A stretch of 24,546 bases of DNA from a virus (Duplodnaviria > Heunggongvirae > Uroviricota > Caudoviricetes): IMG/VR virus record IMGVR_UViG_2872164251_000005. One strand, 5' to 3'. The position numbers and the translations under genes were made by a program. Shown here in pieces: positions 1 through 2,388 of the stretch; position 1 is the first letter of the stretch, and each line of letters starts with the position of its first letter. The notes under the pieces are model-generated. The model was given only the letters and a program-made list of their open reading frames with translations, had not been told where the DNA came from and did not search any database.

Positions 1-1023
1 TCACTTTGGTGACCATGGGACATAATCTGCCAGCTTCTGATTCAGCATTGCGATCTGTTCTGCATTACTGTCAGTCATCCATGCTCCGTATACATTGAAC
101 ACCATCTGGGCACTTGCATGGCCCATCTGGCTGGCAATGAAGCTTGGGTTTGCTCCGGCAGATAATGACCAGCACGCATAAGTGTGTCGTGACTGGTATG
201 CTTTCCGGTGCCTGATGCCCGCACGCTTAATGGCTGTTTCCCATGAGTCGCCAATGGAATCTACCTTGTAGATAAAACCTACCTGTTTGCTTTTTCTAAC
301 CACCTGGGGGTTAAATACGAAAGTACATTCATGATTCACTGAACGTCCATATTCACGTAGTTGAACCTTGATGTGGTGCTGCTTACCCAGTCTTGTCATT
401 TCAGCCTGATTTTTCAGGACACTGATAGCGGGCTGGATAAGATGCACAACCCTGTTTGTACTTGCTTCAGTTTTAGGTAGAGTGAACTCACCGAGTTTCG
501 TATAATTGCGCCTGATAGTAATAGTTCCTGCTTTCATATCGATATCTTCCCAGGCCAGGGAGACCAGTTCACCGTGACGCATTCCTGTGTACACAGCCAA
601 TGACCACAGGTTTTTCGTCTGCTGATGTCGGCAAGCATCTATCAGGCGAATAAATTCGTCACGAGTTAACGGATCTGGCTCTGCCCTGGCTCTTTTAAGA
701 GGCTTAATTCCCTGGAAGGGATTTGCTTCTAAGTAACCGTGATCTGCAGCAAACTGAAACATTCCAGCGATTGTCGTCATGTAATAATTTACAGTAACGA
801 CGCTCCGTCCTTTTGCTGCTGCTTTGTTTTTCGTTGAATTCTGATACCCGGTCAGCAAATCTTTCCTGATATACAGCAATTCCTCTTTGGTTACCGATGA
901 CACCAGTCTGCCGCCTCCAATTTTCGGAACCATCGTTCTTGCAACGGATTCATAGCGATTGAATGCATTTGCAGAGATTTCCATTCGTTTCAGATCCAGC
1001 CACTTTTCTTCAAGTTCCTTCAC
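1..1023 (-). CDS. int: Phage tyrosine integrase (lambda Int-like catalytic core); N-terminal arm-binding region probably removed by the adjacent IS600
   Basis: 340-aa ORF from the track. Tyrosine-recombinase-like motifs are visible (YTGMRHGE, RHTYAC, VYGAWM). By-eye alignment to lambda Int begins near lambda residue 70, so about 70 N-terminal residues appear missing. The ATG at 1021-1023 abuts the IS600 left end at 1024 and the frame runs 5 codons into the IS before a stop. Confidence 0.8.
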   Translation of the reverse strand: MKELEEKWLDLKRMEISANAFNRYESVARTMVPKIGGGRLVSSVTKEELLYIRKDLLTGYQNSTKNKAAAKGRSVVTVNYYMTTIAGMFQFAADHGYLEANPFQGIKPLKRARAEPDPLTRDEFIRLIDACRHQQTKNLWSLAVYTGMRHGELVSLAWEDIDMKAGTITIRRNYTKLGEFTLPKTEASTNRVVHLIQPAISVLKNQAEMTRLGKQHHIKVQLREYGRSVNHECTFVFNPQVVRKSKQVGFIYKVDSIGDSWETAIKRAGIRHRKAYQSRHTYACWSLSAGANPSFIASQMGHASAQMVFNVYGAWMTDSNAEQIAMLNQKLADYVPWSPK

Positions 1024-2286
1024 TGAGGTAGCCTGAGTTTAACGGACACTCCTTCCTGAAATAGAATGGCATCAGAAGGAGCTAATAATGAGCAGAAAAA
1101 CCCAACGTTACTCTAAAGAGTTCAAAGCCGAAGCTGTCAGAACGGTTCTTGAAAATCAACTTTCGATCAGTGAAGGCGCTTCCCGATTATCTCTTCCTGA
1201 AGGCACTTTAGGACAATGGGTTACCGCCGCCAGAAAAGGGCTCGGTACTCCTGGTTCCCGCACGGTGGCTGAACTGGAATCTGAAATTCTGCAACTGCGT
1301 AGGGCGTTAAATGAAGCTCGCCTTGAGCGAGATATATTAAAAAAAGCAACAGCGTATTTTGCACAGGAGTCGCTGAAAAATACGCGTTAATCGAACAATG
1401 GCGACAACAATTTCCCATTGAAGCGATGTGTCAGGTATTTGGTGTATCCAGGAGCGGTTATTACAACTGGGTACAGCATGAACCCTCAGACAGAAAACAA
1501 AGTGATGAGCGGCTAAAACTGGAGATTAAGGTGGCACATATCCGCACTCGCGAAACATATGGAACCCGGCGGCTCCAGACGGAGCTGGCAGAGAATGGCA
1601 TCATCGTTGGTCGTGACCGACTGGCACGTCTTCGTAAGGAGCTGAGGCTACGCTGTAAGCAGAAACGCAAGTTCAGAGCGACTACGAACCCGAACCACAA
1701 TCTGCCAGTTGCGCCAAATCTGCTGAACCAGACGTTCGCTCCTACAGCACCAAATCAGGTCTGGGTGGCGGACCTGACGTATGTTGCCACACAGGAGGGA
1801 TGGTTGTACCTCGCTGGCATCAAAGATGTTTATACGTGCGAAATTGTCGGCTACGCCATGGGAGAGCGCATGACAAAAGAGCTGACAGGTAAAGCCCTGT
1901 TTATGGCGCTCAGGAGCCAGCGCCCACCTGCCGGGCTAATCCACCACTCTGATCGAGGTTCACAGTACTGCGCATACGATTACCGGGTCATACAGGAGCA
2001 GTTTGGTCTGAAAACATCAATGTCGCGTAAAGGTAACTGTTACGACAACGCTCCGATGGAAAGCTTCTGGGGAACGCTGAAAAATGAGAGCCTGAGCCAC
2101 TATCGTTTTAATAACCGGGATGAAGCCATCTCAGTAATACGGGAATACATTGAGATTTTCTACAATCGTCAGCGTCGTCACTCTCGTCTGGGGAATATCT
2201 CCCCGGCAGCCTTCAGGGAAAATATCATCAGATGGCTGCTTAAAAAAAGAACAAATGGTAGTGTCCGCTATTGCCAGTACACCTCA
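1024..2286 (+). mobile_element. IS600: IS600 (IS3 family) copy 1, 1263 bp, TG...CA termini, no flanking target-site duplication
   Basis: Near-identical to the second copy at 6596-7859 (two substitutions noticed, one 1-nt difference in an A-run). Begins TGAGGTAGCC and ends TACACCTCA. Flanks are CAC on the left and CTT on the right, so there is no 3-bp duplication. Confidence 0.85.
1088..1390 (+). CDS. IS600 OrfA (IS3-family transposase N-terminal, helix-turn-helix part)
   Basis: 100-aa ORF MSRKTQRYSKEFKAEAVR, preceded by AGGAG. An A7G slippery run at 1339-1346 sits near its 3' end, the expected -1 frameshift site for OrfAB fusion. Confidence 0.9.
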   Translation: MSRKTQRYSKEFKAEAVRTVLENQLSISEGASRLSLPEGTLGQWVTAARKGLGTPGSRTVAELESEILQLRRALNEARLERDILKKATAYFAQESLKNTR

Positions 2287-2388
2287 CTTATCGACGACGA
2301 GCAGTTTGATGAAACCAATATTGTGCGCGGACTGCCTGTTCCTGGTGGTCGGTTGGGGATAAAAATCACAGAGCTGGAGTGTGCATGA
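1426..2388 (+). CDS. IS600 OrfB (transposase catalytic part); C-terminus altered by a 1-nt deletion so the frame runs out of the IS
   Basis: Same protein as copy 2 OrfB up to ...PAAFRE. Copy 1 has A4 at 2219-2222 where copy 2 has A5 at 7791-7795, so the ORF continues 48 codons past the copy 2 stop and beyond the IS end at 2286. In-frame with OrfA in the -1 frame. Confidence 0.8.
   Translation: MCQVFGVSRSGYYNWVQHEPSDRKQSDERLKLEIKVAHIRTRETYGTRRLQTELAENGIIVGRDRLARLRKELRLRCKQKRKFRATTNPNHNLPVAPNLLNQTFAPTAPNQVWVADLTYVATQEGWLYLAGIKDVYTCEIVGYAMGERMTKELTGKALFMALRSQRPPAGLIHHSDRGSQYCAYDYRVIQEQFGLKTSMSRKGNCYDNAPMESFWGTLKNESLSHYRFNNRDEAISVIREYIEIFYNRQRRHSRLGNISPAAFRENIIRWLLKKRTNGSVRYCQYTSLIDDEQFDETNIVRGLPVPGGRLGIKITELECA

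Follow-up and report, generated by a model that had tools for sequence, protein, structure and literature searches.

An IS600 copy without a target-site duplication joins truncated int and rusA genes in an ipaH-carrying Shigella flexneri prophage remnant and is the probable footprint of an early-region deletion

Results

We describe here a stretch of 24,546 nucleotides (IMG/VR record IMGVR_UViG_2872164251_000005, Caudoviricetes; the window, meaning this whole stretch), in which a copy of the insertion sequence (IS) IS600 lies between a truncated phage integrase gene (int) and the 3' end of a rusA gene next to the antiterminator gene Q. The window spans from the integrase stop codon to the start codon of a dinI-like gene. 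Its nucleotides 1-13,074 match CP032513.1 at 100% from position 1187279 onward (locus L004), and CP032513.1 is the chromosome of S. flexneri serotype 3b strain SFL1520 (PMC6424224). About 35 kb of this chromosome were compared (L004 and L028). In this source genome the integrase adjoins yecE on the left side; on the right, ipaH and dinI are followed by yecD, with an IS110-family element inside it, and then by aspS and nudB. The window is the entire prophage remnant between yecE and yecD, and the prophage is of a lambdoid, ipaH-carrying and decayed type.

Positions 1-1023 (minus strand) hold codons 84 to ~420 of a lambdoid tyrosine integrase of 437 amino acids (aa). From codon 84 onward the fragment has 99.6% nucleotide identity to the gene of the 437-aa integrase WP_000362002.1, and this integrase gene adjoins yecE in 328 of 5,426 complete E. 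coli genomes. Lost from the N-terminus are 83 residues (249 nt), including the start codon and the arm-binding domain. In Pfam, a full-length relative carries Arm-DNA-bind_2 at residues 7-70 together with Phage_integrase, while the fragment in the window has only the latter (catalytic domain PF00589, E = 9e-19, fragment residues 119-312). A second lesion lies near the 3' end of the gene: in protein and DNA alignments, 10 bp are deleted between window positions 15 and 16. The deletion falls between short direct repeats (TGGGACAT...TGGGACAT in relatives) and shifts the frame of the last 17 Int residues to WSPK*. It is an inactivating lesion in its own right, unrelated to the truncation at IS600, and the int gene is, as judged from its sequence, a pseudogene.

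The truncated integrase gene ends at IS600 copy 1 (1024-2286, 1263 bp, plus strand), an element of the IS3 family that is at least 99% identical to elements annotated as 'IS3-like element IS600 family transposase'. Its size and identity fit the reference IS600, which has ~1264 bp and occurs in many E. coli genomes. The orfA gene occupies 1088-1390, an A7G slippery site lies near 1337-1344 and the orfB frame starts from 1426, a layout that matches the 'programmed frameshift' annotation on IS600 relatives; the Pfam domains of orfB are rve, rve_2, rve_3 and HTH_21. A second copy in the window (copy 2, 6596-7859, 1264 bp, plus strand) serves as an internal control. Alignment of both copies reveals two substitutions and a 1-nt deletion in an A-run of copy 1 (2219-2222, plus strand), where four instead of five A residues shift the last orfB codons. 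Because of this deletion, the orfB frame of copy 1 does not end within the IS; it leaves the element and passes in frame through the rusA remnant, resulting in an open reading frame (ORF) of 320 codons (1426-2388).

The two copies differ in their flanks. Copy 2 lies between two GCG triplets (6593-6595 and 7860-7862), and four further simple IS600 insertions, taken from other loci in E. coli, have perfect 3-bp duplications of GTA, CTT, AGA and CAT, so that such a duplication was seen at 5/5 simple insertions. Copy 1, in contrast, is flanked by CAC (1021-1023), which equals int codon 84 (GTG), on the left and by CTT (2287-2289) on the right. CAC is not repeated on the right, and a 3-bp target-site duplication was looked for in the flanks of copy 1 and is absent. 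Because simple IS600 insertions have this duplication, its lack at copy 1 is meaningful; it bears on the history of this copy and not on its identity as IS600. Megablast matches that extend 12-39 nt past IS600 ends in O121 and other E. coli were considered as common insertion sites and rejected, as they are unrelated loci with duplications of their own.

The right flank CTT is the first codon of a gene remnant (2287-2388, plus strand) that comprises codons 87-119 and the stop codon of rusA. Of its 102 nt, 100 agree with the 3' end of a RusA gene (360 nt, 119 aa) of E. coli STEC316, where the gene order is DUF968, rusA, Q. The full-length STEC316 product matches PF05866 (RusA) with E = 2e-15; the stump itself has 33 residues. 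Its C-terminus, LIDDEQFDE.NIVRG...ITELECA, is common to many RusA homologues. We regard the stump as a predicted fragment of a rusA gene and not as a functional RusA member. Its TGA (2386-2388) overlaps the ATG at 2385 (ATGA) of the intact antiterminator gene Q (2385-3074, plus strand), which encodes a phage-82 type protein of 229 aa (PF06323, E = 8e-90, profile positions 1-217 of 220). The preliminary description of this DNA had already given the GCG duplication of copy 2, the CAC and CTT flanks of copy 1 and the identity of Q as we find them. It had also noted the N-terminal truncation of the integrase, put there at about 70 residues, where the alignment to the 437-aa relative gives 83, as well as a 3' gene end with a stop codon overlapping the next ATG; the 34 codons counted there are 33 codons and the stop, and the gene is rusA.

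In a search with the whole window, the closest intact prophage was that of the enteroinvasive E. coli (EIEC) strain RMDEC332, which occupies the same yecE/yecD site. Its int is 99.6% identical to that in the window, and the block from the tRNA cluster to dinI, including the tail genes and ipaH (window 3250-24546), is 98.8% identical. In RMDEC332, these two homology blocks are separated by 18,386 bp (18.4 kb from int to the tRNA cluster), and int and Q are ~15.3 kb apart. The interval holds xis, early-left genes, genes for a LexA-family repressor, Rha and ash, a helicase loader, the replicative helicase, a lambda-type Q, a WYL protein and a DNA methyltransferase. It also contains a simple insertion of IS600 that is oppositely oriented. 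On NZ_CM177021.1 it occupies roughly 2852064-2870450, between the 5' end of int and the methyltransferase gene. A second intact relative, in EIEC strain VL46, is located at mlrA and has another integrase; here int and Q are 13.8 kb apart, and Q lies directly upstream of the same tRNA cluster. In neither of the intact relatives examined (RMDEC332 and VL46) is int located next to rusA or Q. The prophages of SE11 and CFSAN029787 were discarded as intact references; their int is the same but their late regions differ, while RMDEC332 shares both ends.

The blocks retained in the window have the same order and orientation as in RMDEC332, and both chromosomal flanks, yecE and yecD, are native. Because the native flanks are found on both sides, the junction is read as an in-situ deletion and not as one half of an inversion. 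The loss runs from int codon 83 backwards across xis, the early-left genes, the repressor and immunity region, the replication genes and the nin-region genes and ends at rusA codon 86. The comparison with an intact related prophage, which the preliminary description had proposed, identifies the stump gene as rusA and locates the missing interval. The relatives bear out that int and the Q region are normally separated by xis, immunity and replication genes and that the integrase is a full-length protein of 437 aa with the Arm-DNA-bind_2 domain absent from the window; the earlier suggestion of an IS-mediated loss of the early region is supported by the junctions, the intact relative and the native flanks.

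The region between the IS and the tRNA cluster has a history of its own. The module from rusA' to Q (963 bp, 2287-3249) has no counterpart in RMDEC332 or VL46, both of which have a lambda-type Q at this place, and its best match in complete E. coli genomes is 93.8%. Because RMDEC332 lacks this module, the prophage from which the Shigella remnant derives had another Q module than RMDEC332. Homology to the two EIEC prophages begins again at 3138 (VL46) or 3250 (RMDEC332), at a terminator-like hairpin, and by sequence the module boundary looks like an ordinary lambdoid module swap, that is, a mosaic difference from the closest relative. A consensus scan alone predicts a promoter-like site at 3058-3086 and the hairpin with a T-run at 3144-3156 and following (features within 3058-3163, plus strand); their placement right after Q fits the PR'/qut/tR' unit of a Q module. 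On the right side of the deletion, collinearity with the intact EIEC prophage begins with the tRNA cluster (3251-3561, plus strand), which has the anticodons CAT, TCT (Arg), TGT (Thr) and TCC (Gly). Its first member (3251-3327) is called tRNA-Met (CAT) by ARAGORN and annotated as tRNA-Ile in E. coli relatives; presumably it is a lysidine-modified reader of AUA.

The relatives allow ordering of several of the later lesions. The exact Q protein is encoded on ~140 contigs and the truncated integrase on 23, with entry names that denote S. flexneri. All contigs of the public collection that encode exactly this Q have the junction of IS600 with CTT, and the A4 variant of the A-run is common to all contigs bearing this junction. 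Further to the right, an ISEc20-like IS110-family element (~4238-5691), 99.3% identical to annotated copies, stands in place of 10,185 bp of RMDEC332 with holin, lysis, terminase, portal and capsid genes. One contig (L006) has the IS600-rusA junction but runs past window position 4239 into holin and lysozyme genes as in RMDEC332. Because this contig combines the IS600 junction with retained lysis genes, the IS600 deletion is older than the ISEc20-linked loss. Similarity to other ISEc20 copies continues for ~19 nt beyond the element on its left side, and the sequence suggests that this is a conserved target. In the tail region, the tape-measure gene is a single ORF of 1013 aa in RMDEC332, while the window has two ORFs (10223-11122 and 11155-13053) with ~100 nt missing, and tail assembly gene I seems to be in two parts as well (14865-15227 and 15212-15505); both are signs of further decay.

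Several neighbouring features complete the locus. Copy 2 of IS600 is inserted between a head-tail joining gene and the minor tail gene Z, and the 336 bp on its 3' side (7860-8195) are too diverged to be aligned to RMDEC332. The ipaH gene (21946-23697, minus strand) is intact, encodes a protein of 583 aa with LRR_TTSS and NEL domains and is annotated as ipaHd in EIEC relatives. It lies close to the remnant's right end and is the single cargo gene kept whole amid the phage decay. To the right of the window, yecD (L028:2781-4423) is interrupted by a copy of the IS110-family transposase gene, whose product of 398 aa has the length of the one inside the prophage.

We searched for precursors carrying only one of the two insertions that a recombination route would require. 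IS600 reads TGA in frame at both ends, and a simple insertion predicts an Int fragment of 84 residues and a RusA fragment ending with L87. The predicted Int fragment (residues 1-84) is present on six contigs of a public collection, within a cluster of 101 N-terminal fragments of many lengths. These contigs were rejected as precursors: four are chance contig ends, one has a nonsense mutation at codon 85 and one carries an IS911 end at codon 84. Likewise, a RusA fragment ending with L87 (P0133, 89 aa, with a longer N-terminus) was dismissed, as none of its five contigs has IS sequence; three of the five run 1-2 nt past the codon, with 'A' or 'AT' as in intact rusA, and two end at the codon. A search with the junction patterns in the viral contigs of IMG/VR gave 0 matches, even for both observed junctions, and is uninformative since that collection lacks the locus.

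Two of these contigs deserve a description in their own right. One metagenome contig from ENA (L034:624-878) encodes the same integrase, otherwise intact, in which an AAG-to-TAG change at codon 85 leads to the same 84-aa product. The other (L032:1871-2151, Logan SRR13993265) belongs to a different prophage lineage, and in it the end of IS911 abuts int codon 84 with the same 3-bp target GTG/CAC. The xis region of this lineage is 94% identical to that of the EIEC prophage and 100% to that of E. coli O104:H4-type prophages. The presence of two different IS3-family elements at int codon 84 may reflect a hot spot or chance. Targeted insertion beside a sequence resembling an inverted repeat is not supported, because the int target is no more similar to the ends of IS600 and IS911 than shuffled controls are.

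A comparable junction is found in E. coli FDAARGOS_943 (L003:16504-17767), where an IS600 flanked by CGC and ATG, again lacking a duplication, lies in a yecE prophage of the same family. That prophage shares with the window the integrase (99.5%), the integration site and the tRNA region (99.2%), and IS600 replaces part of the early region. In contrast to the window, both int and xis have remained intact there. The element connects the xis side with part of a replication gene, and additional insertions of IS2, ISEc60 and IS600 are found in the neighbourhood. The junction is an independent event. Because its breakpoints differ from those described here, IS600 has cut the early region of this prophage family at least two times.

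Discussion

We show here that a single IS600 copy joins int codon 84 to rusA codon 87 in a prophage of S. flexneri. Directly observed are the junctions, the identities of the two genes that are truncated, the interval that is missing compared to relatives and the native flanks. In our judgment, this arrangement is very probably an IS600-linked deletion that occurred in situ, whichever route led to it. The route that we favour, with moderate confidence, is homologous recombination between two IS600 copies, a proposal that we infer on background knowledge. IS3-family elements transpose by copy-out/paste-in via a circular intermediate, a route that is not known to produce adjacent deletions by itself. 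One IS600 would have inserted in int, duplicating CAC, and a second one in the same orientation would have inserted in rusA, duplicating CTT. Recombination between these direct repeats would then excise the interval along with one IS copy, and a hybrid IS would be left behind, with half of the CAC duplication on one side and half of the CTT duplication on the other. Recombination between two IS600 copies has been directly observed to delete DNA on the S. flexneri plasmid pINV (PMC5629016). Loss of DNA between homologous IS copies is described as typical of Shigella in general and as a route of genome reduction there, and IS600 is abundant in these genomes (PMC7373316).

Several points weigh against this proposal or limit it. 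The final sequence is identical under recombination of two copies and under a one-step adjacent deletion, and the check for halves of two separate duplications that the preliminary description had proposed does not tell them apart. Neither IS600 junction was found in complete E. coli genomes (0/5,426), and the look-ups of exact products yielded no precursor among Int or RusA fragments. The deleted length would be roughly 14-18 kb, its exact value being uncertain because the closest intact relative carries a different Q module. A more complex route is also conceivable, namely an exchange with another prophage via IS600 on one side and homology in the tRNA region on the other; a translocation is very unlikely, judged on the ~35 kb of CP032513.1 that were compared.

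In the one-step alternative, a single IS600 in int or rusA would attack, by means of its transposase, a nearby target on the same molecule, possibly helped by an IS-excision enhancer (IEE), and the remaining IS would have one old and one new flank. Such an event yields exactly what is seen, that is, no duplication, one IS and flanks from two distant genes, and it agrees with the lack of a second-copy precursor in the genomes and collections searched. IEE is reported to promote 'deletion of IS-flanking regions' for IS3-family members including IS600 (PMC9397093), however it has been described for islands of E. coli that produce Shiga toxin (STEC) (PMC9397093), while the two-copy reaction is documented in S. 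flexneri itself (PMC5629016), where the element abounds (PMC7373316). We hold the one-step deletion to be possible but rather doubtful. It would also be atypical of the copy-out/paste-in chemistry of the IS3 family. An exchange between prophages would start from an IS600 in int here and an IS600 in the rusA of another prophage, and a double crossover, in IS600 on one side and in the conserved tRNA or late region on the other, would swap the early region for rusA'-Q. The absence of the rusA'-Q-PR' module (2287 to ~3137/3249) from the closest relatives, which are 98.8-99.6% identical on both of its sides, would be explained in this way, as would its best match of merely 93.8% in complete E. coli genomes. 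Against it, replacement of Q modules belongs to the ordinary mosaicism of lambdoid phages, VL46 and RMDEC332 are themselves unlike in this region, the exact Q protein occurs at one place in the source genome with no donor copy visible, and more events are required than for a simple deletion; we consider the exchange improbable.

That the junction is one end of an inversion or translocation, with the early region surviving elsewhere in the chromosome, is more improbable still. A missing duplication is also a signature of inversion between IS copies, and Shigella genomes are described as rearranging frequently (PMC8072062). One S. flexneri assembly even has a 297-nt contig with the 5' end of int that stops exactly at codon 84. 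This contig is, however, devoid of IS sequence and is 1 of the 101 N-terminal fragments of many lengths, among which a chance contig end is expected, and the yecE and yecD flanks as well as the order and orientation of the segments match the intact prophage of RMDEC332. The idea that IS600 simply inserted here and that point mutations then erased its duplication is refuted: beyond the bare lack of a repeat nothing speaks in its favour, and the flanks belong to int and rusA, which lie >13 kb apart in intact relatives.

The remnant might be more than mere debris. IS600 could provide transcription and translational coupling to Q, and selection could have kept an IS-driven module of Q, PR' and tRNAs. 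The consensus scan predicts no promoter-like site between the one at the left end of IS600 (1039-1067) and the start of Q, and in this reading Q would drive PR' read-through into the kept tRNA cluster (Ile-CAT, Arg-TCT, Thr, Gly). The CAT tRNA and Arg-TCT form a rare-codon set, similar to the tRNA sets of Stx phages. If true, the retained module would supply rare-codon tRNAs to AT-rich virulence genes. We regard such selection as quite unlikely, and Q may have been retained simply by chance.

Deletions of this kind have parallels in known systems. One is the loss of the type III secretion system island from S. flexneri pINV ('Variant 3', PMC5629016), which agrees with the present case in element, host species and outcome, with one IS joining distant sequences. 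That event took place on a plasmid and was seen in real time with the parental copies known, whereas the one described here lies on the chromosome, is old and has become fixed in many S. flexneri assemblies. In STEC, IEE reportedly promotes deletions of flanking DNA at IS3-family elements, IS600 among them (Kusumoto et al. 2011, cited in PMC9397093); this system needs iee, which is carried on SpLE1-like STEC islands. The genome paper of SFL1520 describes phage regions that are cryptic through deletions and, in general terms, cryptic 'ipaH island' prophages (PMC6424224); IS600 occurs 0 times in its main text, and the junction is not described there (PMC6424224). The breakpoints and the gene identities at the junction come from the present analysis.

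A parallel outside Shigella is offered by the E. coli long-term evolution experiment, in which Cooper et al. in 2001 reportedly found IS150-associated deletions of the rbs operon and proposed a new insertion followed by recombination with a resident copy. As in the window, an IS3-family element lies beside the deletion and the final IS has no duplication; element, host and locus are different, and the resident copy is known.

With the loss of the early region, the prophage would no longer have been able to excise, repress or replicate. The later ISEc20-associated loss and the further lesions would have completed the decay, while ipaH stays intact. Decay of a prophage driven by IS600 is here of a routine and already known kind, IS-mediated deletion being textbook for genome reduction in Shigella, and no current view is changed. 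The locus is nevertheless a worked example of prophage lock-in, in which one IS-linked deletion removed excision, immunity and replication functions and the effector gene ipaH was retained. From the relatives one can read in which order the decay proceeded, and this could be used as a lineage marker within S. flexneri.

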